Position numbers and translations under genes: made by a program. Shown here piece after piece: positions 13,017 through 44,155 of a stretch of 64,000 nt of DNA (within the stretch, counting starts at the first letter, position 1; every line of letters begins with the position of its first letter). Source of the DNA: a virus; IMG/VR virus record IMGVR_UViG_3300044568_003163, positions 14,879-78,878 of that record. The stretch is one strand, 5' to 3'. Under the pieces are notes generated by a model. It was not told where the DNA came from. It worked only from the letters and a program-made list of their open reading frames with translations, and searched no databases.

Positions 13017-15976
<2,960 letters not shown>

Positions 15977-15977
<1 letters not shown>

Positions 15978-16592: not shown

Positions 16593-17021
16593 TTATTGAA
16601 TTCTTTTAGTTTTGTCTATTAATTCAGGAAAAAAGAAGGACACTTCAGTAAGTGCATTTTCATCTGAATCAGAACCATGTATTGCATTCGAGGCTATAGA
16701 CGAGCCATACATACTACGGATAGTTCCTGGATTAGCTAATTTAGGGTCAGTATCACCTATCAAAGTTCTAAAATCTTCGATTGCATTTGTTTTTTGTAGT
16801 GCAATTGCAACAATCGGTCCAGAAGTCATGAATTTTATTAGGTCATCGTAGAAATCCTTAGATTTATGAACTGAATAAAATTCCGCAGCTTTATCAGGAG
16901 TCAGCATAGTAACTTTCATTCCTACGGTTTTGAAACCTTCAAAGCTAATTCGTTGTATTAATTGATCTGCCGATGCAAATACATCCGGCTTAATCATGGT
17001 CAATGTGTATGTTCCTATCAT
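16593..17021 (-). CDS. ndk: nucleoside diphosphate kinase
   Basis: 142 aa; MIKPDVF, PGTIRSMYG, NAIHGSDS motifs typical of NDK. Confidence 0.85.
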   Translation of the reverse strand: MIGTYTLTMIKPDVFASADQLIQRISFEGFKTVGMKVTMLTPDKAAEFYSVHKSKDFYDDLIKFMTSGPIVAIALQKTNAIEDFRTLIGDTDPKLANPGTIRSMYGSSIASNAIHGSDSDENALTEVSFFFPELIDKTKRIQ

Positions 17022-17024
17022 GAA

Positions 17025-17516
17025 TTATTTATCTTCGGAAAGATAAATCTTGCTGTACCAATCGAGTTTTAATTTTTCAATGTTACCATATTTGATTCCA
17101 CATTCGTCAAAGATGTGAAGATGTCCTTGTTCTCGGTAATCTTCTATCCAATAAACATATTTGAATCCCGAATTAACTAAGATTTTTGTACACATCTTAC
17201 ATGGAGAAAGAGTTAAGAGGATGATGTAATTCTTTGGATCGAATTCTCGGAACTTAGCAATCATATTAACTTCGGCATGAATGAATCCGCTTTCACCTGG
17301 AATTAGGGAATCCTCTTCAGTTCCTGTTACTTCATTTATTGGTGCACCTTTGTAGGAGCCATTATAGCCAAAAGAAGCTATTTTTGTAAAGTTTTTGTGC
17401 AATGCCATACATGCAACTTTTTTAGTTGATGCATTAGATAATGTAGCTATTTGCTGAATCATACCAGCAAAGGTATCAATTTTAAAGTCTATTCTTTCTT
17501 GTGTCATTATTTCCAA
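17025..17516 (-). CDS. dCMP deaminase (cytidine/deoxycytidylate deaminase family)
   Basis: 163 aa; zinc-binding HAEVNMI ... SPCKMCTKIL signature. Confidence 0.8.
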   Translation of the reverse strand: MEIMTQERIDFKIDTFAGMIQQIATLSNASTKKVACMALHKNFTKIASFGYNGSYKGAPINEVTGTEEDSLIPGESGFIHAEVNMIAKFREFDPKNYIILLTLSPCKMCTKILVNSGFKYVYWIEDYREQGHLHIFDECGIKYGNIEKLKLDWYSKIYLSEDK

Positions 17517-18100
17517 TCTGAATTTACGAGTCGAGTCTTAATACTAATTCCTTTTATTTCTTTGCCTAAAGCATCGGCAATCTTAATGTTTTCTCTATCA
17601 TCGTCATAGAAAATAAAATCTCTAAAACCTATTTTAATAAGTTCCATAAAAGCTTGTTTCTTTCTATCGGCAATTGAACCATCAAATCCATTGTTAGGAT
17701 CAGAAACTGCAAAGATATATTTCGGATTGACGTCTACTCCATGATGAGATAGGAATTGATAAATTAAATCTTTGTCGTCTCTAGCAGTAATGATACCTAC
17801 ACGCCTTCCTCTTTGCATTGTTTTCTTAAGTACATTGAAAACTCGTTCTATTAACTTACCGGCTTTTAAGATTTCTAAATTTTTAAAATCGGAAAAATCC
17901 ATTTCATGATGAGCGTGCTTTTCAAATTCATTGAATTCTGCAGGTGACAAGGTAAAAGTTTCACCGGTTTGACTATCATTAACTTTGATTTGTGAATTGG
18001 TAATTACCAATGTATCATCAACGTCAAATATAGTAATCGCTTCGAATTTTTCTTTACGAGTCGGATCTACAAAATCCTGATATTTTAAAAATTTATTCAT
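17507..18100 (-). CDS. HAD-superfamily phosphatase (nucleotidase-like)
   Basis: 197 aa; motif I FDVDDTL (DxDxT), downstream S/T and K/D motifs. Confidence 0.55.
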   Translation of the reverse strand: MNKFLKYQDFVDPTRKEKFEAITIFDVDDTLVITNSQIKVNDSQTGETFTLSPAEFNEFEKHAHHEMDFSDFKNLEILKAGKLIERVFNVLKKTMQRGRRVGIITARDDKDLIYQFLSHHGVDVNPKYIFAVSDPNNGFDGSIADRKKQAFMELIKIGFRDFIFYDDDRENIKIADALGKEIKGISIKTRLVNSDWK

Positions 18101-18112
18101 AAGTGTTCATTT

Positions 18113-18182
18113 AGTTATAAGACAAATATAACAAAAAAGCTCAACATAATGAAATATTGAGCTTAAAAGTTATTAACAATTT
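18113..18182 (-). promoter_or_regulatory. intergenic cassette: TTGTTAATAAC box + hairpin/T-run (terminator) + GTTATATTTGTCTTAT (-7 TAnnTTTG)
   Basis: minus strand reads TTGTTAATAACTTTTAAGCTCAATATTTCATTATGTTGAGCTTTTTTGTTATATTTGTCTTAT, ends ~15 nt before ATG of 17507-18100. Confidence 0.55.
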
Positions 18183-18187
18183 ATTAT

Positions 18188-18721
18188 TTAGTAATCGTTT
18201 TCGAAATCAGCTTCGGTCATGTTGTCATTAACCCATTTTTCTAATTTCTTAGCATCTTTAGTAAGACAAGCAACATGTTGGAAAGATGAATATTCATCAC
18301 CTTCTTCCCATACTGCAACATCCACGTTTATATCTTTAATGTTGTAGATATAACCTGATAAATTAGAACCACCAAAAGGAGCTTCTCCACCAATACCTTT
18401 AAGTTCTTTAATGTTAAGATCCTTTTCTTCTACTCTGTGAGCTAATCCATAATATAAAGCTACTACGAATCGATAATCATCGTCTTCTGACATTGCATAA
18501 GTAACCGAATTGATATTTCCTTTCAATTGTTTAGCGATAGTTTCGAAGTTAGTTTTCATCTTAGCCAGCATATCATCATCTACCTCACCAGTTTCTTGTT
18601 GCATTTTAATCTGTGATGCTAAAGTAGTCTTAGTTTCAAAAGGGAATCCTGTATTATAATCGTATTTTTCGTTAATAAAATTCTCATTAACGAATTCTTG
18701 AAATGTTTGTAAATTTTTCAT
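18188..18721 (-). CDS. CTS-like N-terminal family member (putative capsid-packaged internal protein)
   Basis: 177 aa; N-terminus MKNLQTFQEFVNEN shared with 6 paralogs; resembles T4 IP capsid-targeting sequence MKTYQEFIAE (recalled). Confidence 0.5.
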   Translation of the reverse strand: MKNLQTFQEFVNENFINEKYDYNTGFPFETKTTLASQIKMQQETGEVDDDMLAKMKTNFETIAKQLKGNINSVTYAMSEDDDYRFVVALYYGLAHRVEEKDLNIKELKGIGGEAPFGGSNLSGYIYNIKDINVDVAVWEEGDEYSSFQHVACLTKDAKKLEKWVNDNMTEADFENDY

Positions 18722-18733
18722 TTGTTTATTTGT

Positions 18734-19237
18734 TTAATATCTGTCGTCTTCTTCCCATTCATCATCGCTTCCATAATCATCGTCATCATCATATTCTTCT
18801 TCTTGGTACCATGATTGGTTAGGGTCGTTGTCAGGTTGTTCTGTAAAATCGTGACGATCTGCGTTAAAACGTCTTGGATCTTCTACTAAAGCAGGAAAAA
18901 GCACTTTACCACCTTTTACTCTAGTTTTTGCATGACCAAAAGCTAAATCAATACCTACGTTTCTTAATTCTTTACCAGGTTTTTTATCAGATTCGGTATA
19001 ACCATTCATTTGGGCTAATAACTCATAATAGTCTTTACCTCCAAATACTCCGTAACCTTCGTAACTATTTTCTTCGTATCTAGTACCTTTATCATCAAAC
19101 ATGTAAACGGTAATAGTATTTTGTCTTTCTGAACCAATTTGTCTTCCAGAATCTTGGGTCATCCATGAAAATTGACCTTCATTTAAAGGTTTAGAATTTT
19201 CATTAACAAACTCGCTGAAGGTTTTTAAATTTTTCAT
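18734..19237 (-). CDS. CTS-like N-terminal family member, acidic C-terminus
   Basis: 167 aa; MKNLKTFSEFVNEN...; C-terminal EEEYDDDDDYGSDDEWEEDD. Confidence 0.5.
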   Translation of the reverse strand: MKNLKTFSEFVNENSKPLNEGQFSWMTQDSGRQIGSERQNTITVYMFDDKGTRYEENSYEGYGVFGGKDYYELLAQMNGYTESDKKPGKELRNVGIDLAFGHAKTRVKGGKVLFPALVEDPRRFNADRHDFTEQPDNDPNQSWYQEEEYDDDDDYGSDDEWEEDDRY

Positions 19238-19238
19238 A

Positions 19239-19631
19239 TTATTTACCTAATCCTGAAGTTATTTTACCAACTGCAGCACCCCAATCGTCACCTTTAACGT
19301 CTTTAGAAATACCAGCAATTACTTTGTCAGCAATTTTTTGATCGTATTTATCTCCGTGAGCTTTTTTCAAAAGCGTTTCTGCGTATTCTTTAAAGTCTTT
19401 TTCGTTTTTAATGTCAGCTTCATTTACTTTACCTTCATTAACTATCGAAATACTTTTTATGTAATCGAAAAATTCCGCAGATTGCTCTTCATTTAATTCG
19501 ATAGGTGAAGTAACACCAAATTGTTTAAGTTTGTTTTCGTATAGTTCATTGAACTTATGTGCTTGGTCTTCTTTAGTTTTTGCAACTTTTTGAAGTTTCT
19601 GCTCATTAACGAATTCTGAAAATTTTTGCAT
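19239..19631 (-). CDS. CTS-like N-terminal family member (short variant)
   Basis: 130 aa; MQKFSEFVNEQ... Confidence 0.45.
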   Translation of the reverse strand: MQKFSEFVNEQKLQKVAKTKEDQAHKFNELYENKLKQFGVTSPIELNEEQSAEFFDYIKSISIVNEGKVNEADIKNEKDFKEYAETLLKKAHGDKYDQKIADKVIAGISKDVKGDDWGAAVGKITSGLGK

Positions 19632-19650
19632 TGTTTTATGTTTGTTTATT

Positions 19651-20193
19651 TTATCCGAAATATTCGTTTTCGAAGTATAACAACTCGAAGTTGTTTTCTG
19701 GGTTTATTAATTGTAGTGCATTTAAGAATCCTGCATACTCAGCAGTAGAAGATGTATTTTGCTTAACATAGTCTTGTAAGAATACGAAAGTAGCCATATC
19801 ATTTAATCCAAAAATAGTTTTAGAATTTTCAGAATATGATTGAAGTAAACCATATTCCATGTCGTAAGCTTTTACGATGATGTCAGCCAAATTGTCGAAA
19901 TTCATATCAGTCGTAACTGTAGGAATTGTAGGTTTAACATCCCAATCGGTCATATATTTTTGTAGACCTTGAGCATGAATTAGTTCATCTGTAGCTTCAT
20001 TGTCAAAGAAAACAGCAGCTTTCTTATATTCCATGTTGTGGCACCAGTTAGCAGCACTACGATAGAAATAATGAGCAGTATATTCATCACCTATTCGTTG
20101 ATTGATAAGTTTAACAACTTCACTCCTAAGAGTATTAGGCTTTTTAACGATAGTTGGATCTACCGATTTAATTGATTCGTTTATGATATTCAT
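19651..20193 (-). CDS. ferritin-like protein
   Basis: 180 aa; EYTAHYFYRSAANWC...AAVFFDNEATDELIHAQGLQKYM matches ferritin diiron pattern E..Y.Y.S.A..(L..A.FF)..E..HA..L..Y. Confidence 0.5.
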   Translation of the reverse strand: MNIINESIKSVDPTIVKKPNTLRSEVVKLINQRIGDEYTAHYFYRSAANWCHNMEYKKAAVFFDNEATDELIHAQGLQKYMTDWDVKPTIPTVTTDMNFDNLADIIVKAYDMEYGLLQSYSENSKTIFGLNDMATFVFLQDYVKQNTSSTAEYAGFLNALQLINPENNFELLYFENEYFG

Positions 20194-20226
20194 ATAATAG
20201 TTTTAGTTCTTTTATATATCCAACAA

Positions 20227-20787
20227 TTACATGTTGGCGTCTAGAACTTTTTTGAATGATTTAGCATCAGTAACTTCTTCTCCGTGCAATTCAATAGTTT
20301 CTCTATCCAAATTGATGTAGATTTCTGAACCTTGATATTTCATATCTAAGATAATAGTGCTGTAGTTTTTTCCAATAGCTGTACCACCACTAATTCTTTT
20401 GCCTGCCTTTTCTGCCCATGTAGCAGCCTTTTTAACTAATGCAGTTGCATAGGAACCTTTACGTTTAGCAAATTCCATGATATTAGAAGGTACAGATGCA
20501 GCTTCATTAATTACAGATTCTTCTACTTTAAAAGTTTTGTTTCCTACTTTAACGGTTTTACCTATCAGATCATCAACACCATAAGGTTTTCCTAATTTGT
20601 CTTCGAAAGTTTGATCGTCTGACCAATCATCAGGAGTTTGTAAAAGTTTTGCAATCACATCGGCTTTAGAAGACGATTCAGTTCTACCCCAGTTGTCGAT
20701 AACCTCAGAGTAATAAACTATTTCGATTGCTCCTTCATTAACTGAAGATTCGTTAATGAATTCGTTGAATGTTTGTAAGTTTTTCAT
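20227..20787 (-). CDS. CTS-like N-terminal family member
   Basis: 186 aa; MKNLQTFNEFINES... Confidence 0.5.
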   Translation of the reverse strand: MKNLQTFNEFINESSVNEGAIEIVYYSEVIDNWGRTESSSKADVIAKLLQTPDDWSDDQTFEDKLGKPYGVDDLIGKTVKVGNKTFKVEESVINEAASVPSNIMEFAKRKGSYATALVKKAATWAEKAGKRISGGTAIGKNYSTIILDMKYQGSEIYINLDRETIELHGEEVTDAKSFKKVLDANM

Positions 20788-21176
20788 TATTGATCGATGA
20801 ATTCTCCATTTAGGAATCTAAGTAGAATTTTATCAGTGGGTTGTACATTTAAGTTTCCGTTGATAAAAATCTCATAAGAATCATCAGCATATTTGCCGAT
20901 GCCATAAAGCTCATTGGCTTTAGAGAATTTTTTATTTATATATTCATATGAGAACTTAATAATTCGCTGAGTTCTGACGTTATAAAATCCTAGAGTTCGG
21001 ATATGTTCTCGGATTTCATTTTCATCGGCATTAAGAACCGATTGTGGACTAGGCCATTTGTCAAAAAATGAGTAAATTACCTTTCTAACATTTTTGTTGC
21101 CTGTTTGATTTAACATAATGCAACCAATAAGCATTTTCCAGGGATCGTGTTGAAATTCTTGTTGAATAATTGCCAT
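20787..21176 (-). CDS. HhH-GPD superfamily DNA glycosylase-like protein (short)
   Basis: 129 aa; LIGCIMLNQT...ELYGIGKYADDSYEIF...NVQPTDKILLRF resembles EndoIII/HhH-GPD core. Confidence 0.45.
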   Translation of the reverse strand: MAIIQQEFQHDPWKMLIGCIMLNQTGNKNVRKVIYSFFDKWPSPQSVLNADENEIREHIRTLGFYNVRTQRIIKFSYEYINKKFSKANELYGIGKYADDSYEIFINGNLNVQPTDKILLRFLNGEFIDQ

Positions 21177-21183
21177 ATCTATT

Positions 21184-21822
21184 TTATGCTGATTTTTTTA
21201 ATTTGATTTTCTTTTCAGGTACCGGATTAGGTACATATTGAGAAACTGCTGAATTTACAAACTCCGAAGTCCACCATTCAGGTTGATTATTTAATTTGTT
21301 CCAGGAGACATTCATGTACGTCGTCTTGAACGCATAGTATTTTTTATAAGATATTACAGCATCACTAGATTGATAACAGATTGGCATCGCAGTGGCAAAA
21401 GGAGTAAGGCCTTTTGATATAATGTTTGGTGGATTTAATTTCATCCAATCAATAATTAATTTAACCGAGTGTGGATTGTTTTTCCATCGATTAAGAAATT
21501 CTTGACAAAGTTCTTCTGTGCATTCAATTAGCCAATTGAAATTTTCTTTAGATTCTCGAGTCCATATAGTGCATGGATGATTAACGTGACTGATTGCATA
21601 TGGATGATCTGTGCCATCTGGATGCTTTCTAGGCCAGCCTTTAAATATTTTACTAACTGCATCTTGATTTTCTGCAATTTCTTTCTTTTTGGAAATTCCT
21701 AACGTATGATAGTATGCAGCTGCTAACATTTGTGTGTGTTCGATTATCATTTTTGAAATGTGTTTATCGCAATGCATCTGTGCCGCAATTCTAGGATTTT
21801 CATCCAATACAAATATGTTCAT
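21184..21822 (-). CDS. hypothetical protein (start moved to internal Met MNIFVLDENPRIAAQMHCDKH)
   Basis: 6-frame ORF extends to 21912 through AT-rich cassette; the hydrophobic low-complexity N-terminus is unlikely to be coding; the internal ATG at 21822 lies just downstream of the 21838-21918 cassette. Confidence 0.45.
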   Translation of the reverse strand: MNIFVLDENPRIAAQMHCDKHISKMIIEHTQMLAAAYYHTLGISKKKEIAENQDAVSKIFKGWPRKHPDGTDHPYAISHVNHPCTIWTRESKENFNWLIECTEELCQEFLNRWKNNPHSVKLIIDWMKLNPPNIISKGLTPFATAMPICYQSSDAVISYKKYYAFKTTYMNVSWNKLNNQPEWWTSEFVNSAVSQYVPNPVPEKKIKLKKSA

Positions 21823-21837
21823 TGTAGTTAATTTATT

Positions 21838-21918
21838 TAAAGTAAAAATAATCAAATTAATTGACAAGAAAAAATAAAGTGAGTAGAAGTTATTAACAAA
21901 AAAGGAACTCAATAGAGT
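21838..21918 (-). promoter_or_regulatory. intergenic cassette (GTTAATAAC box + hairpin GGAACTCTATTGAGTTCC + T-run)
   Basis: plus strand gttattaacaaaaaaggaactcaatagagttcc. Confidence 0.45.
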
Positions 21919-21951
21919 TCCTTAATGTGTGCTTCGATTTGTGTTTGTTAT

Positions 21952-22320
21952 TTAGCTATTTAGCTGTTGGTATTCTCCGGTTGTATCATTTACTTTAGCC
22001 AATGAATCAGCATAAAATTTTTGATATAATTTATCGAATCTTCTATCTATCTCAGATTTGAGATTGTCGATATTATTTTCTGTCGCTAAAGTATATTCTT
22101 CGATTCGTCTTCCTCGTTCATCGATATTAGATATTAAGCTTTCTTCAACTTCATCAATTTTACGTTGAGTGTCGTCGTGTAAGTGGTGCAAATCTAAAAT
22201 TTGCTTTTCGTGAGTTATGTCGTTTTTTTGTGCCTTACGTATTCCTCTAACCATCCATATTTGCAGAATGACCAAAAGAGTTGCTAGTACGCTCAACACC
22301 GATATTAAAATTGGTTCCAT
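21952..22320 (-). CDS. membrane-anchored coiled-coil protein
   Basis: 122 aa; N-terminal TM helix ILISVLSVLATLLVILQIWMV then charged heptad-like region. Confidence 0.5.
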   Translation of the reverse strand: MEPILISVLSVLATLLVILQIWMVRGIRKAQKNDITHEKQILDLHHLHDDTQRKIDEVEESLISNIDERGRRIEEYTLATENNIDNLKSEIDRRFDKLYQKFYADSLAKVNDTTGEYQQLNS

Positions 22321-22355
22321 GTGTTTGTGTTTTATTTTTAAATCGAAGCACCAAT

Positions 22356-23501
22356 TTATTTTTTATTCATTTCAAAATCGATCATTTGTTTGATGGTTTC
22401 GTGTAATGATATTGTAATTCCTTTCCATTCTGGATAATCAGTTTTAAATTTAGTCAAATCTGAAATATACCAAATATGGTCACCAATTCGATTGTCTTCT
22501 AGAACTGTGAAGTCGTTCCAATCTTTATGTTCTGGATTTATTTCTCTTAAGATAGAATTTGCCGAATCGATTGCTTCTAGAATCGAAGTTGAATTTTCTC
22601 TACCACCACCTGCATTATAGACTGCACCAGGTATAGGGTTGTTATGATATTCTAAGAACATACTTACTAAGTCATCGGAATGGATATTATCTCTAACTTG
22701 TTTTCCTTTATAACCAAAGATGTTGTAATGTTTGTTGTTGACAATACACTTAATCAAATAAGCAAGAAATCCATGAAGTTCTGCACCTTGATGATTTGGT
22801 CCGGTTAAACAACCACCTCGAAATACAACCGTATTCATACCAAAATATCTGCCATATTCTTGAACCATAATATCAGCAGCTACTTTAGAAGCACCAAAGA
22901 TTGAATGTTTTGTATGGTCAATCGACATAGTTTCGTCTACTTCTATTTGACGAGCAGATAGATTCGAAAGAGCTTCATAACGAGTTTCTTGTTCAACGAT
23001 GTTTAATCGATTAGGAGTATCACCATAAACTTTATTAGTTGATGTGAATATGAATGTAGCAGTTGGACAATATAAACGAGTAAGTTCTAACAGGTTCATT
23101 GTACCTATTGCATTTACTGAGAAGTCAGTCAAAGGTTCTTTTGCTGCCCAATCATGTGAAGGTTGTGCTGCAGTATGTACGATCATTTGAATATCATAAA
23201 CTTCATGAGATTTGCCGAATATTGTAAGTTCGCTATCTTCTAAAGTAAGGCCTTTGAAAATTGTTTCTAATGTTGCATAATCTCGAATATCGATAGACAA
23301 TGGATTAAAGTTTGTTCCATAATCTAATTTCATTTTATTTTCTGATTCTTTCGTAGAAGCATCTTCACCAAAGAAATAAGCTCGCATATCATTATCGATA
23401 CCAACAACATAATAACCTTCATTAATAAGACGTTTAACAGTTTGAGAACCTATCAAACCTGAAGATCCTGTAACAATTGCAGTTTTAACTTTATTTTGCA
23501 T
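22356..23501 (-). CDS. NAD-dependent epimerase/dehydratase (SDR family, sugar-nucleotide modifying)
   Basis: 381 aa; Rossmann motif TAIVTGSSGLIGSQ; YxxxK-type catalytic region (YGASKVAAD). Confidence 0.75.
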   Translation of the reverse strand: MQNKVKTAIVTGSSGLIGSQTVKRLINEGYYVVGIDNDMRAYFFGEDASTKESENKMKLDYGTNFNPLSIDIRDYATLETIFKGLTLEDSELTIFGKSHEVYDIQMIVHTAAQPSHDWAAKEPLTDFSVNAIGTMNLLELTRLYCPTATFIFTSTNKVYGDTPNRLNIVEQETRYEALSNLSARQIEVDETMSIDHTKHSIFGASKVAADIMVQEYGRYFGMNTVVFRGGCLTGPNHQGAELHGFLAYLIKCIVNNKHYNIFGYKGKQVRDNIHSDDLVSMFLEYHNNPIPGAVYNAGGGRENSTSILEAIDSANSILREINPEHKDWNDFTVLEDNRIGDHIWYISDLTKFKTDYPEWKGITISLHETIKQMIDFEMNKK

Positions 23502-24063
23502 TTTTTATAATTGAGTTTTTAATTAAGAGTTTTTCGATTTCTACTATTGATTGTTCAATAGATTTTACAGATGAATCAATTTCGATAAATCGATTTTTCC
23601 ATTTACCAGAATCCGAATGATTTTTGTAATAGTCATAATACCAATCGAACGAATCTTTTTGTTTAATAAAGTCGTTTTGAGAATAGATGATTCGATCTTT
23701 TGGTTTTCGTTCTACGTATTTTTCGTATGTAGTTGAAAGATAAATTATGGCAAAATTATTATCAAGGAGTAAATCACTTAATGAATCATCTTCTTTGATT
23801 AGAGATTTTCTTTCAAAGAATTTTGAGTAAACTAATTCAGAAAGAAAAGAACGATCTAAGATGAAAGTTTCTTCAGGAAATGCAGAGTACATCATATTAG
23901 CCATCACATGAATTCCGTGATAGAATTCATGTAAGTTTTCAATACATTCAGGCATTTTGTCTTTTACTGACATTTGACGGAATCCGTATTTTTTAGAAAG
24001 TATTTCTGCAATCGAAGATTTTCCTGTTCGAGAAAGTCCTTCAAGTATAATTAGTTTTGCCAT
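23491..24063 (-). CDS. P-loop deoxynucleoside monophosphate kinase-like protein (T4 gp1-like)
   Basis: 190 aa; MAKLIILEGLSRTGKSSIAEIL resembles T4 gp1 MKLIFLSGVKRSGKDTTADFI (recalled). Confidence 0.55.
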   Translation of the reverse strand: MAKLIILEGLSRTGKSSIAEILSKKYGFRQMSVKDKMPECIENLHEFYHGIHVMANMMYSAFPEETFILDRSFLSELVYSKFFERKSLIKEDDSLSDLLLDNNFAIIYLSTTYEKYVERKPKDRIIYSQNDFIKQKDSFDWYYDYYKNHSDSGKWKNRFIEIDSSVKSIEQSIVEIEKLLIKNSIIKNAK

Positions 24064-24085
24064 AATTGTTATATGATGAAATCGA

Positions 24086-25375
24086 TTATTTGGTTAAGCA
24101 AGTGCGAATATCATTTACAATTCTATCACATGCAGACTCATATGATTCGTGGTCATATCCTACTTTGTGACATAATTCTCGCATTTGAGTTTCGCCGATA
24201 GTGCCAATCGTATGTAATGCAGTTCTTAATTGATATGCAACATCTTTTACGTCGGGTTTGTGAGTATTAACAGAATCAATTTTCGTGAAGTAAGGATATT
24301 CAGCATGACCAGCTTTTATCATTTTGTGCAGGTAGTTATTTACTCGAGGAAATACTAAAATGTTTTTTGCCATCATAGCTTCGCAATGAGTTACACCACC
24401 ATGAACTTCAGTAACAAATAAATTACAAGCAATATGGGTTTTGTTGATAAACCTTAAATAATCTTCTCGAGTAAATTTTTCGTTATTTGGCATTACTTCG
24501 ACGTGACCTTTTGATAAATCATTAATCAATTGTAATTGTTCATCAGTTACTTTACGAGTAGGATTTAACATTACAGCTCTGAAAGGTTTGTCGGTGATAG
24601 TAGATAAAATTCCAATTGCTTCGGCAAATGAATCGTAATTAGTGTAACGATTTGCAGTATCTGAAATTCGATTACCAAAGTAAATTGTAGGAATTTCAAA
24701 TTTTTCATCGTTATGGTATTTTGCAATTTCTGCATAATGAGCACCTACACCCCATACTGACTGAGGAGCAAGTATTTCTCGAGTTTTAAATAGAATATCA
24801 TAAGCTTCCATTGCTTCTACTCTACCAGCTTCACATTGAAATGCAGCAATATCAGATGCAATAAAAGATTCCATTTGTCTTTCGTAATAACGAATTTTCT
24901 GCGGAACTTTATTTGCAATAGGAGAATCTAAGAAATAATTTGTAGAAATGATTTTCACTTCTTTGTTTCCAATAGTTTCAAATGCAACTCGCCAATTTTT
25001 TGTTAATGTGTTTTCGTCATTAATCATTACATCGACATGAGGAAATCTTACAAGATTTGTTTGATGGTAATCGAAGTTGAAATTGTAACGAGAGGTCACA
25101 GGAGAAATAGGAATAATGTCTTCGTAAATTTGAATTGATGAATGATATTTCTCATCAAATAATTCGTAAATGTCGATCACATCATCGCAATGACCTGCAG
25201 GTGGTAATTTTACAATGAAATGGAATTCGTTAGGATTTTGTTCTAATATGGTTGAAATTATACCAACCGCAATATTAGTACATGCATCGTTTCTTAATAA
25301 CCATTGAGGATAACCATTTCGATTAGTGAAATTAGAAACTTGAATTGCATAAAAGATTGTTGTTTTTTTATTCAT
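24086..25375 (-). CDS. hypothetical protein (429 aa) within nucleotide-modification cluster
   Basis: ORF extends to 25432 but overlaps upstream gene; ATG at 25375 (MNKKTTIFYAIQ) sits 5 nt after stop of 25380-26105. Confidence 0.5.
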   Translation of the reverse strand: MNKKTTIFYAIQVSNFTNRNGYPQWLLRNDACTNIAVGIISTILEQNPNEFHFIVKLPPAGHCDDVIDIYELFDEKYHSSIQIYEDIIPISPVTSRYNFNFDYHQTNLVRFPHVDVMINDENTLTKNWRVAFETIGNKEVKIISTNYFLDSPIANKVPQKIRYYERQMESFIASDIAAFQCEAGRVEAMEAYDILFKTREILAPQSVWGVGAHYAEIAKYHNDEKFEIPTIYFGNRISDTANRYTNYDSFAEAIGILSTITDKPFRAVMLNPTRKVTDEQLQLINDLSKGHVEVMPNNEKFTREDYLRFINKTHIACNLFVTEVHGGVTHCEAMMAKNILVFPRVNNYLHKMIKAGHAEYPYFTKIDSVNTHKPDVKDVAYQLRTALHTIGTIGETQMRELCHKVGYDHESYESACDRIVNDIRTCLTK

Positions 25376-25379
25376 TAAA

Positions 25380-26105
25380 TTACATTTTAGAATAGTTAAT
25401 AGTAGAGTGTGGTAGGTTTTGTATGTAATCAAAATCCTTTTTGAAAACGTGAGCAGAAACTACAGACGAAGAAAATTTACCTGGTTCAACTTCTAGTTTT
25501 TCTGCTAATTCGCAAGTAAATCGACCCCATAAGTACATATCAAGCTTAAGGACTTGTGCCATATTTTGAGATCGCATATGAACATGAACATTTAGCTTTT
25601 CATCTCGGATAAAGAAAGTAGCAGAATCGGTACATGGAAATTCTAAAGATTCGTTTTTATCTAAAAGATTAAGGTCATCTTTATCGAGAATCATAATGAC
25701 TGCTCTTCGAGTATCAGGTTTATCTCGCAATTCCTTTTCGATTGTAGGTAATTGTGATAAAATACGAGGACCATAGAAGGTATTGAAGTTTTCTGGAAGT
25801 TGGTCAGACTTTGGCTTTTCCATAAACTTAGTGACGTTTGGATATTTGTCGATAATTTCGGTTGAGTCTGTGCAACCGTTCATCATCCAACGATAAAAGG
25901 TATCAGCATAATCATAGTCTAATTTACCAATCAACTCGTTCGTAAATTGATAACTGGTTAAATCGAGTACATCATAACTCAATCCTGTAATTTCATGTAC
26001 TTCACCAATGCGAGAAGTAGTTTGAAATTCAGGATTGTCTATAATATGCTGAGAAGTTTGTAAGAAAGCTTCTTCAAAAGTTTCAAATGTAGAATATTTG
26101 TGCAT
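25380..26105 (-). CDS. thymidylate synthase superfamily enzyme; dCMP hydroxymethylase-like
   Basis: 241 aa; DTRRAVIMI, FPCTDSATFFIRDEKLNVHVHMRSQN...KLD closely parallels T4 gp42 DSRRGIMIY...FMCTNTVQYLIRDKKINAVVNMRSND...RND (recalled); Asp at the position that is Asn in ThyA. Confidence 0.6.
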   Translation of the reverse strand: MHKYSTFETFEEAFLQTSQHIIDNPEFQTTSRIGEVHEITGLSYDVLDLTSYQFTNELIGKLDYDYADTFYRWMMNGCTDSTEIIDKYPNVTKFMEKPKSDQLPENFNTFYGPRILSQLPTIEKELRDKPDTRRAVIMILDKDDLNLLDKNESLEFPCTDSATFFIRDEKLNVHVHMRSQNMAQVLKLDMYLWGRFTCELAEKLEVEPGKFSSSVVSAHVFKKDFDYIQNLPHSTINYSKM

Positions 26106-26137
26106 AAAAAATAGTTTTAAATCTTATGCAAAATTTG

Positions 26138-26491
26138 CTATTTTGTATCAAGTAATTTTACTTTAGCAACACAAAGTTTTTCTTTGATTTTATCAGTTTT
26201 GATTTTACCAAATCTAGAGAAGACCATTCGGGTCATATTAGGATTGATTCTATCCTTAATGATATTATCTAGTTCCTCACCTTTAATATTTGAATAAGTT
26301 CTCAATTCAAATCGATCTTCTTCAATGTGAGTTAACATAATTGAACCGTTCATAAAGAAAAGCCTTTTTGCAGTTTCGAAATCTTGCTTCAAAATGAAGT
26401 CGTTCATAAACTCGTTTTTCATAGTCTTATTTAGTGTTAAGACTACCAATGATTCGTTAATGAACTCATCGTATTTTTTAAATGTGCTCAT
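26138..26491 (-). CDS. CTS-like N-terminal family member
   Basis: 117 aa; MSTFKKYDEFINESL. Confidence 0.45.
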   Translation of the reverse strand: MSTFKKYDEFINESLVVLTLNKTMKNEFMNDFILKQDFETAKRLFFMNGSIMLTHIEEDRFELRTYSNIKGEELDNIIKDRINPNMTRMVFSRFGKIKTDKIKEKLCVAKVKLLDTK

Positions 26492-26976
26492 TACTTATTT
26501 AATTTTACCTCTATGATATTTTTAGGTCCTTTAGAAATAGTGGCCTTAGGGAATTCATGTTTAATATATTTAGAATAGAGATTAAGTCTAGCTATGTTTG
26601 TAGTTTCTCCTTTCTTTTTTGCTGGTGTAAATACGAGAATATCTACTTCGGGATGTGTACTTAAGTCTTTCTTAATTACATCTACGACGGTTGCCATTAC
26701 TTTAAATAGTTCTCCCTTATTTGTTACAATATCATCTCTTTCAATGTCTGGATCTTCATCATCCGGAACATAGAATCTCACAGATAAAACGTTGTTTGCA
26801 CCTTCATAATCGTCTATGTCGTCGTATTGTAGTTCTACCGTATATGGATAGCTTGGTGTTTCAAATCCATATATTCTTGCATTGCCATAATCACCATAAA
26901 AATCAGGATGATATGCCTTTGAACTGGAATCTCCTATTTCGTTTAAGAATTCGTCGTATGATGGTAAATTTTTCAC
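26491..26976 (-). CDS. CTS-like N-terminal family member
   Basis: 161 aa; MKNLPSYDEFLNEI. Confidence 0.5.
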   Translation of the reverse strand: MKNLPSYDEFLNEIGDSSSKAYHPDFYGDYGNARIYGFETPSYPYTVELQYDDIDDYEGANNVLSVRFYVPDDEDPDIERDDIVTNKGELFKVMATVVDVIKKDLSTHPEVDILVFTPAKKKGETTNIARLNLYSKYIKHEFPKATISKGPKNIIEVKLNK

Positions 26977-27338
26977 TAGTCTTGTTTTGGTTTTTCGCCT
27001 TTACCTTTTAACCAATCGGCAACATCAGAATCCGTAGTTTCGTATCCTTTAGTTTTTCTAATGAAAGCATTTAAACGAGCATAACCCCATGCAGTATATG
27101 CTGCAGGACCTCTACCAATTTTTTGAATGTTAGGATTAACAGCACCCCAATTAGTTTCAGCTGCACCATAACCTCTTTTAAAGAGCATAGTTAATGCATC
27201 TTCGATTTGAGCAGGAGATCCACCAATAGCTTTTTTAGTTTTTGGATCGTTTGCAAGTTCCTTTATTCTATCATCTACTTTGCTATCTTCATTTAATGCA
27301 AAATCGACGAATTCGTCGTAAGTTATTAGATTTTTCAC
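26976..27338 (-). CDS. CTS-like N-terminal family member
   Basis: 120 aa; MKNLITYDEFVDFALNE. Confidence 0.5.
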   Translation of the reverse strand: MKNLITYDEFVDFALNEDSKVDDRIKELANDPKTKKAIGGSPAQIEDALTMLFKRGYGAAETNWGAVNPNIQKIGRGPAAYTAWGYARLNAFIRKTKGYETTDSDVADWLKGKGEKPKQD

Positions 27339-27346
27339 TTATTGAA

Positions 27347-28156
27347 TTATTTTGGTGTCCAAATCTTTTGAACTTTTTTATTTATATATTCAATGAGTTC
27401 GCTGAAATTAGGATCTAACGCCTGAGAGTCGAATGATTCTTTATTTGTAGAAAACGAAATCTTACCGTAAACTTCTCGAGTATCTAAATATTGAGATATT
27501 CCAGCTTTTCGCAAAGAATCTGAAAATATAACATACTCATATCTACCAGAATTATCGTCATATATAATATTAGGTAAAACTTCGTTCTTAACAAAGTATG
27601 TACAATGTACTACTGGAACTTGGATTAGTCCTTTATATTTTTGATATAATAATGTAGAGTACATATCATCATTTTCGAAATATCCATTGGTATCTATTGA
27701 TGAATGGAAATTTGAGTACATAGAGTTAGAATCTACTGAATGCAATAAAGGTGCTACTACTGGTAAATTAGTGGCCATTAGAGAATTGATAGTATGAGGT
27801 TTGATTATATTATCACAATCTGCGATAAAATAATCTGCCTTTTCGCTCATGGCAAATTGAATAGAGTCTTGTCTAATTGCTCCTAATATTTTAAATCGAT
27901 GAGTATTCCAATCGTGATTTTCTACTAACTTTAGGCTTTCATCTATCGATGAATCATCAAATACCATTTTCCATTTCCATTTCCACTTATTGTACCAATC
28001 AAATAAAACATTAGCAGTATCGTCGTTATTGTCGTTTGTTCGAATATAAAATACCGAGTCCCATCCAAGAGCAGTCTGAGCTAACATACTATCTAAATAC
28101 AATGGTAGTATATGGGCTTTTGATTTTGCGATAATAGGAATTACTAATCTACTCAT
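27347..28156 (-). CDS. glycosyltransferase, GT-A fold (DxD motif)
   Basis: 269 aa; N-terminal IPIIAKSKAHILPLYLDSMLAQT (GT2-like) and YFIADCDNII DxD motif. Confidence 0.5.
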   Translation of the reverse strand: MSRLVIPIIAKSKAHILPLYLDSMLAQTALGWDSVFYIRTNDNNDDTANVLFDWYNKWKWKWKMVFDDSSIDESLKLVENHDWNTHRFKILGAIRQDSIQFAMSEKADYFIADCDNIIKPHTINSLMATNLPVVAPLLHSVDSNSMYSNFHSSIDTNGYFENDDMYSTLLYQKYKGLIQVPVVHCTYFVKNEVLPNIIYDDNSGRYEYVIFSDSLRKAGISQYLDTREVYGKISFSTNKESFDSQALDPNFSELIEYINKKVQKIWTPK

Positions 28157-28572
28157 ATATGTTCTAGAATTTCAAGGTGAGCTTTAATCATTCTAGGTCT
28201 AGCCATTTCAAACGGCATAAAACCAGCCCAATCAACTTCTGCAGCTTGTAATTGAGACTTAGGTATGATTTCGGATTGTAAACCTATTTGGTCTAATGAT
28301 TTAATAGGTACAATATAATAAGTTAACTTCTTCCAGGGTTTTCCTGTTTTAGTTTTGATATAAAATAGCTCCATTTCTGGACCAATCAAATTTCGAGGAA
28401 CATCAATACCAATTTCCTCTTTAGTTTCTCTGATTGCTGCTTCTATATTAGTTTCACCGGCATCAACATGACCTTTAGGGATCGAATAGGTTCCATACCA
28501 TCTTCCATTAGTTGGATGAACTAATAAAATTTGGTCTTTATAGATTATTGCTAATCCTGACGAATGTTCCAT
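28153..28572 (-). CDS. Nudix hydrolase
   Basis: 139 aa; Nudix box GHVDAGETNIEAAIRETKEEIGI (Gx5Ex7REUxEExGU). Confidence 0.75.
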   Translation of the reverse strand: MEHSSGLAIIYKDQILLVHPTNGRWYGTYSIPKGHVDAGETNIEAAIRETKEEIGIDVPRNLIGPEMELFYIKTKTGKPWKKLTYYIVPIKSLDQIGLQSEIIPKSQLQAAEVDWAGFMPFEMARPRMIKAHLEILEHI

Positions 28573-30488
28573 TATTGTTTGATTAAATTTACGATGTCAC
28601 CATAAGTAACAATTTTAACTCCTAGCTTTTTAGCTTTTGCAGTTTTAGAAGTAGCAGAATCGATATCGTCAGTAATTAGATATGTTGAATCGGCAGATAA
28701 AGAAGTTTGAACATAACCATGAGGAGCAATTAATTTAACGAATTCCTCTTTAGTTTTAAATCCAAATTCTTTAGGAGAACCAGTCATTTCGAATTTAATT
28801 GAATTAGCATCGATTACTGTTTTAACTTCAGTTTCTATTATATATCCGTTAGCTTTTATCAGGTCGATTAAACGAATTACGGATTGATATTCAGGAGATG
28901 ATTGATTATAGAAAGGTGCATATGCCTCTCTAGATTTTCCTGAGAAATCTGGAGTTCCACCATCGAATAGTTTAGCAATTTGTTCGGATGTAGAGAATCC
29001 TACATTTTTAAAAGCTAATGAAGCAATGATTCGAGGCATTGTAATTGCTTTACGTTTTTCAAATGATTGTAAAATAATTTCTAATGCTCGACCTTTCTTA
29101 AAGTAACCTGACTTAATAAGATTAGCTTCGTTGAATTTTGTTTTGTCGAATAAATCAAACATGGTTTTAATACCTGCATTATAGAGATTTTCAATAGTAG
29201 CACCACCAACATTATCTAATTCGAATGTACCAATTCCTACTGATAATCGACTAATCAATTGTTCTTTACAATTTGGATTTGTACAAAGTAAATGAACACC
29301 ATCAATTTCAATTTTACATTCTAGAGTAGAACATTGAGCAGGTATGTGATCGTTAATGTCTTTAACAAATACTGGAGTGATTACGTGTCTTACGATAGGT
29401 ATAATATCACCTGATTTTACGATTACAACCTTAGCACCAGGAAATAATCCTTTGGTTTGAATATTTCCAAGATTATGTAATGCAACTCTAGAAACAGTAG
29501 TTCCATCTAAATCGATAGGTTCAAGTATACCAACTGGTTTGAATTCACCGGATTGTCCTAAGTTCCATTCGATTCTATTGATATATGTTACTGCTTCGGT
29601 TGGTGGAAATTTGATAGCCATTGCCCATTTAGGGTGATGGTCAGTTTCACCAATTTTGTTTCTTAATTCATGAGGAAATTTAATTACAAAACCATCAAGT
29701 CCATATTCACAATCATGAATTCGGTAATAATGAAACATATTGAAAATAGTTTCGAATTGAGAAGGAAAGAATGTATGAACAAAATCTGGAATAAGAAATC
29801 CATTACGTTTAAGTATTTCGAATTGTTTAGTCCCATGTTCATAAGCATTATTTTCGTGGATTCGATATTCAAAAGCAATAAAATCAAAATCATTGATTAC
29901 GCTTAAGTCTTTAATTTCATCTCGACCTAAGATACCGGCAACAAAGTTACGAGGATTTTTGTAATCCATCGAATATTTTTCGTTGAATAATTTGGTTTTG
30001 ATAATTACTTCACCACGAATTTCGATTAAACCTGGAATGTTGATTTCGTTAGGAACGATATGCATTATTTTAGAAGTAATATCAGTTCCATGAGTTCCAT
30101 TACCTCGAGTAGATGCAGTAATTAGCTTACCGTTTTTGTAAGTTAAGTTACATGAAGAACCATCAAATTTAGGTTCAGCTTCTAATTGTAAAGTTTTTTG
30201 TAATAATGTACCAGCTGAATTTGTAGATTTTTCGATCCAATCGTTGAATTTTTGAATCGGTAAAGATTTATCTTCTAAATCGTTTACTTGTGTTTTTTGT
30301 AAAGATAACATTGGAGATAGGTGCTGATTTTCTTTTGAAGTATCATCAGATCCTACTATGTTGATTACGTTTGAACCTTCAGCTCTTAGTAAATCTTCTA
30401 ATCTATCGAATGCGGTATCGGTCATTAAAGGATTACCATCGTAGTAAGCTTTCTTAGCGTCTAAATAAAGTTTTTCGTTTGTGTTCAT
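28572..30488 (-). CDS. ligA: NAD-dependent DNA ligase
   Basis: 638 aa; adenylation motif EPKFDGSS...TRGNGTHGTDIT; size and domain order of LigA. Confidence 0.85.
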   Translation of the reverse strand: MNTNEKLYLDAKKAYYDGNPLMTDTAFDRLEDLLRAEGSNVINIVGSDDTSKENQHLSPMLSLQKTQVNDLEDKSLPIQKFNDWIEKSTNSAGTLLQKTLQLEAEPKFDGSSCNLTYKNGKLITASTRGNGTHGTDITSKIMHIVPNEINIPGLIEIRGEVIIKTKLFNEKYSMDYKNPRNFVAGILGRDEIKDLSVINDFDFIAFEYRIHENNAYEHGTKQFEILKRNGFLIPDFVHTFFPSQFETIFNMFHYYRIHDCEYGLDGFVIKFPHELRNKIGETDHHPKWAMAIKFPPTEAVTYINRIEWNLGQSGEFKPVGILEPIDLDGTTVSRVALHNLGNIQTKGLFPGAKVVIVKSGDIIPIVRHVITPVFVKDINDHIPAQCSTLECKIEIDGVHLLCTNPNCKEQLISRLSVGIGTFELDNVGGATIENLYNAGIKTMFDLFDKTKFNEANLIKSGYFKKGRALEIILQSFEKRKAITMPRIIASLAFKNVGFSTSEQIAKLFDGGTPDFSGKSREAYAPFYNQSSPEYQSVIRLIDLIKANGYIIETEVKTVIDANSIKFEMTGSPKEFGFKTKEEFVKLIAPHGYVQTSLSADSTYLITDDIDSATSKTAKAKKLGVKIVTYGDIVNLIKQ

Positions 30489-30573
30489 ATCGTTTTTAAT
30501 TATAGAGTAAATTTAATCAATTTTTCCGATACTAGGAAATGTTTTGACAATTATTTACAAAACTTGTTAACAA
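30489..30573 (-). promoter_or_regulatory. intergenic cassette variant (TTGTTAACAA box ... AAATTGATTAAATTTACTCTAT)
   Basis: plus cttgttaacaattact and taaatttaatcaatttttcc; upstream of ligA start. Confidence 0.45.
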
Positions 30574-32982: not shown

Positions 32983-33471
32983 TTAAAAGTTATGGTCTGT
33001 TAATCGAACGTCAAAATCTGTAAAATTTGCAAAGTCCTTTTCATCGGCTTCTAATCTTCGTTCTACTGTATCAGCATCACTTCGTAATGCTAATCTATCT
33101 TTTCGGATATCAAGTGCAATATCGATGTAAATGATGAACGAATTTTTTCGATCAGCTGCATGTAATTTACTAATTCCGGAAGGCGTCATGATAAACACGT
33201 CATCAGTTAAGTGGAATTGTGAATTTGAAGTTCCATAATTCCAACCATTAAATGAAACATGTTCATAGAAGAACTTTTGTTCAATCATCGTTTGGAACTC
33301 ATTATCTTCTAAGAAGTAATAATCTCTGCCATCAACTTCACCATCTCTTGGAGGTCGAGTTGTATAAGAAACTCCATAACGATAACCTCTGCCTTCTAGG
33401 ATTTTTCGCAAATGGTCTTTGCCGGATGCGGCTTTACCGCAAAGTATAATTCTGGATTTTGTACCTGTCAT
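32983..33471 (-). CDS. gmk: guanylate kinase
   Basis: 162 aa; P-loop CGKAASGKDHL and YTTRPPRDGEVDGRDYYF (GMP kinase signature). Confidence 0.8.
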   Translation of the reverse strand: MTGTKSRIILCGKAASGKDHLRKILEGRGYRYGVSYTTRPPRDGEVDGRDYYFLEDNEFQTMIEQKFFYEHVSFNGWNYGTSNSQFHLTDDVFIMTPSGISKLHAADRKNSFIIYIDIALDIRKDRLALRSDADTVERRLEADEKDFANFTDFDVRLTDHNF

Positions 33472-40476: not shown

Positions 40477-40946
40477 CCTCTTCGTTTATTATTTCTCTTA
40501 ATTAAATGGGCATACGACCAAATACCTTCATTGGTAAAATTAGTTGGTGCCCATTTGTTCATATCTAATGAAATCCACTCTTCGGTGCCGTCTTTGTTAT
40601 TTGCAATATACATATGGATTTCGTCAACTAAAGACTCGAATTGTTTAAATAGAGAGGTGCCACCTAAAACATAAATTGGTCCTTCTGTGTGCAAGTGTAA
40701 ATCATCCGTATCATGAATTACGTTTACATTCATTCGCTTCCATTTTCTATTTCTGGTAATCACCCACGTATTACCACCTTTCCATTTAGTAATATCATAG
40801 GTTTTTCTTCCAATCAAACATACCTCTTTCTTGAGTAAATCTCTAATCAAACATTCATGATGCCAAATCCTTAATCCAAGGTCTGGTACAGTATTTGATT
40901 GGTTATCTACTATTGCAACAAATATGATTTTTTGATTGTGTAGCAT
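40473..40946 (-). CDS. folA: dihydrofolate reductase
   Basis: 157 aa; [10 protein letters not shown]...LIGRKTY...[11 protein letters not shown] matches DHFR pattern (IWA.D.NG.IG...LPW, GRKT, VIGG..LY). Confidence 0.8.
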
Positions 40947-42585: not shown

Positions 42586-42587
42586 AG

Positions 42588-43768: not shown

Positions 43769-43809
43769 AAGAGGGCAAAAGCCCTCTTAATTGTATGGTT
43801 GTTAAAAAC

Positions 43810-44154: not shown

Positions 44155-44155
44155 A

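Follow-up and report, generated by a model that had tools for sequence, protein, structure and literature searches.

A probable gene module for glycosylated 5-hydroxycytosine in an uncultured giant phage with unusual sugar enzymes

The DNA analysed here, the window, is a stretch of 64 kb from a phage genome that may be as large as about 294 kb and belongs to a lineage known from metagenomes alone. All ORFs of the module described below lie on the minus strand, and those named in a preliminary description of this DNA were all found at the positions given there. That description had overlooked two genes, the GT-B glycosyltransferase gene at 24086-25375 (429 aa, left unassigned) and the FMN reductase-like gene at 31017-31490. 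The genes bearing on the argument are the following:

16593..17021 (-) nucleoside diphosphate kinase (NDK), dNDP to dNTP; Pfam NDK, 154.5 bits
17025..17516 (-) dCMP deaminase, pyrimidine pool; Pfam dCMP_cyt_deam_1, 51 bits; phrog_174
17507..18100 (-) predicted phosphatase of the HAD superfamily; Pfam DUF2608, 25 bits; phrog_415
22356..23501 (-) extended SDR nucleotide-sugar enzyme, most like CDP-tyvelose 2-epimerase but with Phe in place of the catalytic Tyr; Pfam, PDB
23491..24063 (-) thymidylate-kinase-like P-loop kinase (cluster kinase), putative 5hodCMP kinase; phrog_761
24086..25375 (-) glycosyltransferase of GT-B fold (GT4-like), predicted to attach the first sugar to 5-hydroxycytosine (5hoC) in DNA; fold, position
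25380..26105 (-) ThyA-superfamily enzyme, predicted flavin/O2-dependent dCMP 5-hydroxylase (5hodCMP synthase); homology and active-site signature
26138..26491 (-) conserved 117-aa protein, function unassigned; directly upstream of the ThyA homolog
27347..28156 (-) GT-A glycosyltransferase with DxD, candidate second (chain-extending) DNA glycosyltransferase; phmmer, Pfam
28153..28572 (-) Nudix hydrolase, outside the conserved module; Pfam NUDIX, 52.9 bits
31017..31490 (-) flavodoxin-fold protein resembling NAD(P)H-dependent FMN reductases, may provide the hydroxylase with FMNH2; ~5 kb upstream of the synthase
32983..33471 (-) guanylate-kinase-like nucleotide kinase; Pfam Guanylate_kin, 70 bits; phrog_1815
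40473..40946 (-) dihydrofolate reductase (DHFR), folate/thymidylate metabolism; Pfam DHFR_1, 34 bits

The source is probably an uncultured giant phage infecting Bacteroidota. Its SmpB is nearest to the SmpBs of Bacteroidota, in agreement with the Bacteroidetes-type phage proposed earlier, the host lineage being Bacteroidota-like and the GC content 32%. No close relative was found among 50,697 GenBank phages. As judged from its genes, this phage probably carries a recently described gene set for sugar-decorated 5-hydroxycytosine in place of cytosine in viral DNA.

The ThyA homolog and RB69 gp48 share 49% identity over 229 aa (243 bits), and phmmer with the window protein against the PDB returned 9iqu/9iqc at E 1.4e-72, the sequence of 9iqu being nearly identical to that of RB69 gp48, and MilA at 5e-10. 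In E. coli ThyA numbering, the alignment revealed Cys146, L143E, D169N and N177D, of which the catalytic Cys is invariant across the window, reference and related-locus alignments. The Asp at the position of Asn177, already pointed out in the preliminary description, is supplied by KLD, and Glu143 by SLEFPC. The motifs quoted in that description, FPCTDSATFFIRDEKLNVHVHMRSQN...KLD for the window and FMCTNTVQYLIRDKKINAVVNMRSND...RND for T4 gp42, are exact, and they already held the diagnostic difference at position 169 (MRSQN vs MRSND). MRSQN, the motif with Asn169, is found in the window protein, RB69 gp48, Bp7 and all seven synthases from related loci, whereas T4 gp42 keeps the Asp (MRSND) and E. 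coli has RSCD. The full signature is common to these seven synthases, even though two of them are just 30-33% identical to the window protein. An Asn at the position of Asp169 has been reported as diagnostic of 5-hydroxy-dCMP synthases; RB69 gp48 and DLP3 gp80 bind flavin and form 5hodCMP with oxygen from O2, and, in a tested set of limited size, 9/9 diverse D169N homologs yielded 5hodC (PMC13326640). Since the ThyA homolog combines 49% identity to the proven enzyme RB69 gp48 with the full signature including Asn169, we infer that it hydroxylates dCMP at C5 with flavin and O2. The 117-aa protein encoded directly upstream had no family match; its homologs (48-62% identity) occupy the same position relative to the ThyA homolog in the related loci L009, L011, L014 and L016.

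Synthase, GT-B and cluster kinase genes are tightly packed, with gaps of 4 nt (synthase-GT-B) and 22 nt (GT-B-kinase) and an overlap of 11 nt between kinase and SDR, and their order, synthase, GT-B, kinase, agrees with that in RB69, DLP3 and RL38J1. We compared the region with eight related metagenomic loci. The synthase-GT-B pair is kept in seven of them, in each case with Asn169 in the synthase, and the cluster kinase lies downstream of GT-B in 7/8. Because this core order is conserved in 7/8 related loci, the clustering is not due to chance. The SDR was found in six of the eight and the dCMP deaminase in five, adjoining the HAD gene in four of these; the guanylate-kinase-like gene is also conserved. 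A variable slot in the relatives holds Gmd, a second SDR, GT11, a DegT aminotransferase or an acetyltransferase.

The best structural neighbours of the GT-B protein are 6kih and BshA. Its sequence has no detectable similarity to the Bp7 arabinosyltransferase, and orthology is thus argued from position and fold only. Its predicted role follows from the fold, the conserved place beside the synthase and the analogy with RB69 gp46:47, DLP3 gp79 and RL38J1 gp215. The cluster kinase matches phrog_761 over residues 1-180 (E 1.2e-16), a family that also holds RB69 gp45 and the Bp7 cluster kinase. T4 gp1 belongs to phrog_139 (222 bits), which covers just residues 1-37 of the cluster kinase. The proposed likeness to T4 gp1 hence stands for the N-terminal P-loop end (28% over 65 residues by BLASTP) but not for the type of kinase, and a T4 gp1-type dNMP kinase was rejected for 23491-24063 since a full-length phrog_139 match is missing and phrog_761 was found instead.

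The SDR scored 122 bits with Pfam Epimerase and matched PDB 1orr at E 4e-29, with HSIFGASK opposite HSPYGCSK. A Phe takes the position of the catalytic Tyr in 120/120 close homologs and in 96 of 150 representatives; without the canonical Tyr, the protein may not be a conventional epimerase. Neither the RB69 arabinose-pathway proteins nor the RB69 gp46/47 transferases nor T4 beta-GT have a homolog anywhere in the window, and no nucleotidyltransferase for a donor sugar was found there. The GT-A glycosyltransferase with a DxD motif was recognized correctly in the preliminary description: phmmer aligns it to the GT-A domain at the N-terminus of procollagen galactosyltransferase 1 (COLGALT1; E 1.7e-19), with DCD opposite DAD, and its precomputed Pfam family is PF13704. 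It is absent from the 50,697 GenBank phage records.

This relationship raises the possibility, to which we give some weight but which we doubt, that only the 5hoC core acts on DNA, with one sugar per cytosine, and that GT-A, possibly together with the SDR, O-glycosylates collagen-like fibre proteins rich in Thr, or some acceptor other than DNA. The only solved relatives of GT-A are collagen glycosyltransferases (COLGALT1, LH3 and mimivirus R699), and nearby genes encode two collagen-like proteins, 986 and 993 aa long, with 68 and 80 G-X-Y triplets that are mostly G-X-Thr. Most of the relatives in which the core is kept are moreover without GT-A, and a Paenibacillus chromosome carries a member of the GT-A family on its own, as an orphan. 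However, in the related locus L017 a GT-A homolog (59% identity) sits inside the core operon, between GT-B and the cluster kinase, and GT-A lies less than 2 kb upstream of the synthase both in the window and in a 226-kb relative. The collagen-like repeats contain almost no Lys and are therefore not substrates of the COLGALT1 type.

Pfam upheld the family assignments made earlier for the NDK, dCMP deaminase, SDR, Nudix, DHFR and HAD-superfamily genes. The HAD protein has no similarity to the HAD protein RB69 gp51. The suggestion that the Nudix protein is an analog of a dCTP/dCDP pyrophosphatase did not hold, as the gene is absent from 8/8 related loci and the protein reached the curated cut-off of no specific NCBIfam family. 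The scanned ORFs of the 64-kb window, which is part of a genome that may reach about 294 kb, include neither a dCTPase nor a dNMP kinase of the gp1 type; the module can thus not be called complete, as had been claimed, and full replacement of cytosine is a candidate reading only. The FMN reductase-like protein may feed the hydroxylase, a link drawn from gene position only, its model being of low confidence.

The preliminary description had taken the ThyA homolog for a folate-dependent dCMP hydroxymethylase of the T4 gp42 type, which would place glycosylated 5-hydroxymethylcytosine in the DNA; we now consider this very improbable. T4 gp42 does share with it the Asp in place of Asn177 and an acidic residue in place of Leu143, and the DHFR gene at 40473-40946 could be counted in favour. 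DHFR is dispensable for a flavin-dependent hydroxylase. The family phrog_160 takes in the window protein and T4 gp42, but does not discriminate because RB69 gp48 belongs to it as well. Against hydroxymethylation, the folate-contacting Asp169, which is kept in gp42, is Asn in the window protein; identity to gp42 is about 25% (50 bits) vs 49% to the proven hydroxylase; the PDB E-values are 9e-7 for gp42 vs 1e-72 for 9iqu/9iqc; and every D169N homolog assayed gave 5hodC (PMC13326640). On Asn169 and the 25% identity we rejected the gp42 type, and, since Asn at this position marks 5-hydroxy-dCMP synthases according to the published work, hydroxymethylcytosine as the starting base. A third reading, in which 25380-26105 encodes an ordinary thymidylate synthase that cooperates with DHFR and dCMP deaminase, both of which are encoded, next to glycosyltransferases that are unrelated auxiliary genes, has a practically negligible chance despite its Pfam and NCBIfam names, as PF00303 scores a mere 40 bits, the NCBIfam thymidylate synthase models reach 20-50 bits against cut-offs of 108-405, Asn177, Asp169 and Leu143 are replaced by Asp, Asn and Glu, and the protein lacks the tail that closes over folate at the C-terminus. 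The profiles thus place 25380-26105 outside the canonical thymidylate synthases, as the preliminary description had expected.

Taken together, the region is likely a biosynthetic module for glycosylated 5hoC in virion DNA, a reading derived from sequence comparison. It retains the T-even logic of cytosine hypermodification proposed earlier, in which dCMP is modified by the ThyA homolog, kinases carry the product up to the triphosphate, and glycosyltransferases add sugars to the base once it is in DNA. In the predicted pathway, the ThyA homolog would hydroxylate dCMP at C5 using flavin and O2, for which the FMN reductase-like protein may, more speculatively, provide reduced flavin. The phrog_761 kinase and then NDK would take 5hodCMP to the triphosphate, which the phage polymerase would build into DNA. 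With an NDP-sugar as donor, GT-B would attach the first sugar to the 5-hydroxyl group of the DNA base, and GT-A would, with less certainty, probably add a further one. The donor sugar, predicted not to be arabinose, would be made by the tyvelose-epimerase-like SDR from a host NDP-hexose.

Compared with hmC glucosylation in T4 (gp42, gp1, gp56, alpha- and beta-glucosyltransferases), C5 in the window phage would be hydroxylated by flavin and O2 without folate one-carbon transfer, the synthase has Asn169 instead of Asp169, and the kinase belongs to phrog_761 instead of phrog_139. The arabinosyl-5-hydroxycytosine system is known from T4-like phages, with RB69 gp45-gp55, Acinetobacter phage DLP3 gp76-gp83 and the Afh genes of E. 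coli phage HY126 (Lee et al. NAR 2026, PMC13326640); the same system is treated by He et al. (Nat Chem Biol 2026) and Mahler et al. (Cell Host Microbe 2025), as cited in PMC13326640. Shared with it are the D169N-signature synthase (49% identical), the order synthase, GT-B, phrog_761 kinase, the structural neighbours 6kih and BshA of the GT-B protein, and dCMP deaminase. Unlike that system, the window lacks arabinose-5-phosphate isomerase, its HAD phosphatase, the kinase/uridylyltransferase and the U32 protein, its scanned ORFs include no gp1-type dNMP kinase or gp56-type dCTPase, sequence comparison detects no homology between the two GT-B proteins, and it adds the Tyr-less tyvelose-epimerase-like SDR, the COLGALT1-like GT-A and the FMN reductase-like gene; host lineage (Bacteroidota-like, 32% GC) and phage lineage differ, too. 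Rhizobium phage RL38J1 and other Pootjesviridae carry hexosyl-5-hydroxycytosine, and RL38J1 encodes the same triad with a synthase of the D169N type (gp214 kinase, gp215 galactosyltransferase, gp216 synthase; PMC13326640). In RL38J1 one phage enzyme, a UDP-galactopyranose mutase, accompanied by two further GT-B proteins, remodels a sugar nucleotide from host NDP-hexose; in the window phage the SDR, accompanied by an extra transferase of GT-A fold, would do the same. The decoration in the window phage is likely a hexose rather than a pentose, as in RL38J1. The module had been thought to be new, but glycosyl-5hoC pathways in diverse viruses were already published in 2025-2026; what is new here is their probable occurrence in a different phage lineage, with sugar enzymes unlike those of the known examples.

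All genes named in the preliminary description were found on the minus strand at the coordinates assigned to them there, and profile searches gave the following identities.

16593-17021 (-), nucleoside diphosphate kinase
17025-17516 (-), dCMP deaminase
17507-18100 (-), HAD-superfamily protein
22356-23501 (-), extended SDR
23491-24063 (-), P-loop kinase
25380-26105 (-), ThyA-superfamily protein
28153-28572 (-), Nudix hydrolase
40473-40946 (-), dihydrofolate reductase

The reading of these genes as a T4-type hydroxymethylcytosine (hmC) pathway did not hold. Judged from sequence, the module is predicted to be one for glycosylated 5-hydroxycytosine (5hoC).

The key enzyme, the ThyA homolog at 25380-26105, was aligned with E. 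coli ThyA, T4 gp42, RB69 gp48 and the homolog from phage Bp7. The motifs quoted previously for the window enzyme and T4 gp42 turned out to be exact. In E. coli ThyA numbering, the window enzyme has Cys146, with Glu in place of Leu143, Asp in place of Asn177 and, where T4 gp42 keeps Asp169, Asn; it shares 49% identity with RB69 gp48 compared to 25% with T4 gp42. Glu143, Cys146, Asn169 and Asp177 were present in all seven related synthases, two of which are just 30-33% identical to the window enzyme. RB69 gp48 and DLP3 gp80 convert dCMP to 5-hydroxy-dCMP with O2 as the oxygen source (Lee et al. NAR 2026, PMC13326640); the enzyme holds loosely bound FMN, and 5-hydroxycytosine in the DNA is subsequently arabinosylated (PMC13326640). 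Asn at the Asp169 position is diagnostic; nine out of nine diverse D169N homologs tested gave 5-hydroxy-dC (PMC13326640). The four residues, together with the two identity values, leave the hmC conclusion unsupported and place the enzyme in the predicted hydroxylase branch. Thus, the earlier residue observation stands, whereas the hydroxymethylation deduced from it does not. Given the active-site residues, we rejected both a canonical thymidylate synthase and a gp42-type hydroxymethylase.

A search of solved structures gave 9iqu/9iqc/9ir2 as top match (E 1.4e-72), an entry titled 'thymidylate synthase' whose 9iqu sequence is nearly identical to RB69 gp48, followed by the CMP hydroxymethylase MilA (5e-10), T4 dCMP hydroxymethylase (9e-7) and, more weakly, ordinary thymidylate synthases. 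A text search for the codes 9IQU, 9IQC and 9IR2 returned nothing relevant. Using tblastn against phage genomes, homologs of about 51% identity were detected in Bp7, Acinetobacter T4-like phages and others, often adjoined by a thymidylate kinase and labelled thymidylate synthase or dCMP hydroxymethylase depending on the record. Automated annotation applies these same two labels to the enzyme, and a single residue, Asn at the Asp169 position, alters the predicted DNA chemistry and hence the expectations for restriction, CRISPR and sequencing of such phage DNA.

Directly downstream of the synthase, after a gap of 4 nt, lies an ORF of 429 aa (24086-25375). Sequence-family searches gave no match for this protein, for which we collected 162 metagenomic homologs; the AlphaFold model built with the homolog alignment is confident (pLDDT 89.8) and has a GT-B fold. 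Since profile comparison showed no similarity between this family and the Bp7 transferase, we claim no sequence orthology, and propose the GT-B protein as a putative equivalent by position and modelled structure. The adjacent kinase (23491-24063) had been likened to T4 gp1, a likeness confined to the P-loop end: over its full length it matches phrog_761, as do RB69 gp45 and the Bp7 cluster kinase, and not phrog_139, the family of T4 gp1. Phosphorylation of the base in DNA by this kinase, as by 5-hmU DNA kinases, was considered and not adopted.

Metagenomic contigs as long as 294 kb carry proteins identical to those of the window. The window proteins were also located in eight related loci. The synthase is followed directly by the GT-B gene in seven of them, and the kinase lies downstream in seven; the SDR was found in six, and six have a gene for an FMN reductase-like protein, upstream of the ligase. 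The Nudix gene was present in none, and its proposed role as a dCTPase was not supported. The GT-A gene (27347-28156) occurs in one locus (L017), between GT-B and kinase, and in the gene table of a 226-kb relative 0.4 kb upstream of the synthase. The relatives have differing sugar genes between or after the core genes, among them those for GDP-mannose 4,6-dehydratase, a second SDR with the normal Tyr, a GT11 fucosyltransferase-family protein, a DegT aminotransferase and a hexapeptide acetyltransferase. Three loci carry differing sugar genes around the common core:

L009, 11287-13266, second SDR and GT11
L014, 11287-16291, Gmd and a 373-aa protein
L017, 13780-16301, DegT, hexapeptide acetyltransferase and a protein of ~425 aa

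The arrangement resembles a constant core plus an exchangeable sugar cassette, and the variation suggests different glycans on one modified base. Members of a small-ORF family with the shared N-terminus MKNLxTFxEF(V/I)NE, divergent beyond it, are found at the following positions; the window has six or more of them and L014 has five in tandem, and the member at 26138-26491 always lies just upstream of the synthase.

18188-20787 (-), window, small ORFs
26138-27338 (-), window, small ORFs
6324-8337, L014, small ORFs

In two divergent relatives, a Peptidase_U32-family gene adjoins the GT-B or kinase gene (L013, 8296-10130; L018, 8117-9187), and in L013 a DAHP-synthase-family gene comes next. A tblastn search of the 16-kb L013 contig, with the synthase of the window as query, gave no ThyA homolog. 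The U32 family includes the prephenate-dependent RNA pyrimidine hydroxylases, and RB69 gp50, annotated as a peptidase, has structural matches to a U32-type collagenase. The U32 genes of L013 and L018 could provide an alternative or auxiliary route of hydroxylation.

With regard to the sugar, we found no homologs of the RB69 arabinose pathway (isomerase, HAD phosphatase, kinase/nucleotidyltransferase, U32 protein), of RB69 gp46/47 or of T4 beta-GT anywhere in the 64-kb window. The nearest match to the SDR is CDP-tyvelose 2-epimerase (E 4e-29), but the YxxxK motif of the SDR has Phe in place of the catalytic Tyr (HSIFGASK compared to HSPYGCSK in the epimerase). All 120 close homologs share this Phe, as do 96 of 150 representative relatives, 43 of the 150 falling outside the search pattern. 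Elsewhere, Phe-type SDRs are fused to GT11, GT2 and WecG glycosyltransferases and to methyltransferases, which argues for a genuine, uncharacterised sugar-pathway subfamily as predicted from these sequences.

The GT-A protein (269 aa) matched the N-terminal GT-A domain of procollagen galactosyltransferase 1 (E 1.7e-19), with its DCD aligned to DAD; our own Pfam run gave no match, and precomputed annotation places it in PF13704. Its solved relatives all act on collagen, a homolog stands alone in a Paenibacillus chromosome, and two collagen-like proteins with many G-X-Thr triplets are encoded in the window:

13017-15977 (-), collagen-like paralog, 986 aa, 68 G-X-Y triplets, mostly G-X-Thr
37495-40476 (+), collagen-like paralog, 993 aa, 80 G-X-Y triplets, mostly G-X-Thr

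Glycosylation of a collagen-like fibre protein rather than DNA is therefore conceivable, if rather unlikely, given that the gene adjoins the core in the window and lies inside the core operon in L017. The genomic context of the Paenibacillus homolog was uninformative. We favour extension of the DNA glycan by GT-A. The two paralogs are inverted, about 21.5 kb apart, and flank the entire nucleotide-metabolism region, with 70-86% complementarity between the DNA arms.

The single-sequence model of the FMN reductase-like protein (31017-31490) was weak, so its fold matches count as supportive only. Megablast of 22000-30500 and tblastn of GT-B, GT-A and FMN reductase against 50,697 GenBank phage records gave no match. 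The host is probably a member of the Bacteroidota, as already supposed, since the phage SmpB shares 45-53% identity with SmpB proteins of which nearly all come from this phylum.

30574-31017 (-), SmpB, Pfam 147 bits, nearest cellular SmpB from Bacteroidota

ARAGORN detected no tmRNA gene in the window. Among its scanned ORFs there was no dCTPase, gp1-type dNMP kinase, ThyA or ThyX; the window covers just 64 kb of the genome, and complete replacement of cytosine is thus no more than presumed.

Further neighbours relate to nucleic acids, with repair genes at 41626-47391 and 57227-59939 (-).

20787-21176 (-), MBD4 mismatch glycosylase-domain homolog, 129 aa, full length, PDB 3iho E 1e-26
21184-21912 (-), phrog_624 'DNA binding protein', E 1e-49
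41626-42585 (-), UvdE UV endonuclease
44156-44932 (-), ExoX-like exonuclease
45143-45787 (-), metallophosphoesterase
45771-46385 (-), HAD_SAK_2 'Swiss-army-knife RNA repair' phosphatase domain
46903-47391 (-), second HAD_SAK_2 domain
48714-56390 (-), tRNA array, 35 genes
52215-52673, RNaseH-like ORF within the array
54906-55352, YqeY-like ORF within the array
57227-58543 (-), RNA ligase
59073-59939 (-), metallophosphoesterase

The MBD4-like protein keeps the catalytic Asp position and is conserved in related loci (58-78% identity), where its gene is located a few kb away from the core; in a 5hoC genome it might act on deamination products, e.g. 5-hydroxyuracil:G. The adjoining phrog_624 gene is conserved in relatives, and its product had a weak match, of 19.6 bits and so under the cut-off, to the pyrimidine-dimer DNA glycosylase family. 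One tRNA (49166-49238) was called with a four-base anticodon (agcg).

A speculative and rather unlikely reading is that this uncultured giant-phage lineage has a self-contained, two-component system in which the phage's own FMN reductase feeds the hydroxylase and 5hoC carries a non-arabinose, perhaps multi-sugar glycan. Its tools, in this reading, would be a GT-B family that cultured phages have not shown, a GT-A resembling collagen galactosyltransferases and a Tyr-less nucleotide-sugar SDR, and relatives would swap in fucose-type and N-acetyl-amino sugar cassettes. If true, this would be a family of DNA sugar decorations chemically not yet described.

It was in T4-like and Rhizobium phages that glycosylated 5-hydroxycytosine was established, as recently as 2025-2026. 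The order of synthase, GT-B and kinase in the window is that of gp48, gp47:46 and gp45 in RB69 and is identical in the triads of DLP3 and RL38J1. With this signature enzyme and triad in an uncultured phage lineage, probably of Bacteroidota, the predicted modification reaches well past phages of Proteobacteria, and the related loci show that the sugar toolkit round a fixed core is exchanged among relatives. The FMN reductase as candidate hydroxylase partner, the Tyr-less SDR and the GT-A are supplied as testable genes. The module is of the kind described in 2025-2026, and it belongs to a new phage lineage with a sugar toolkit unlike those of known systems.
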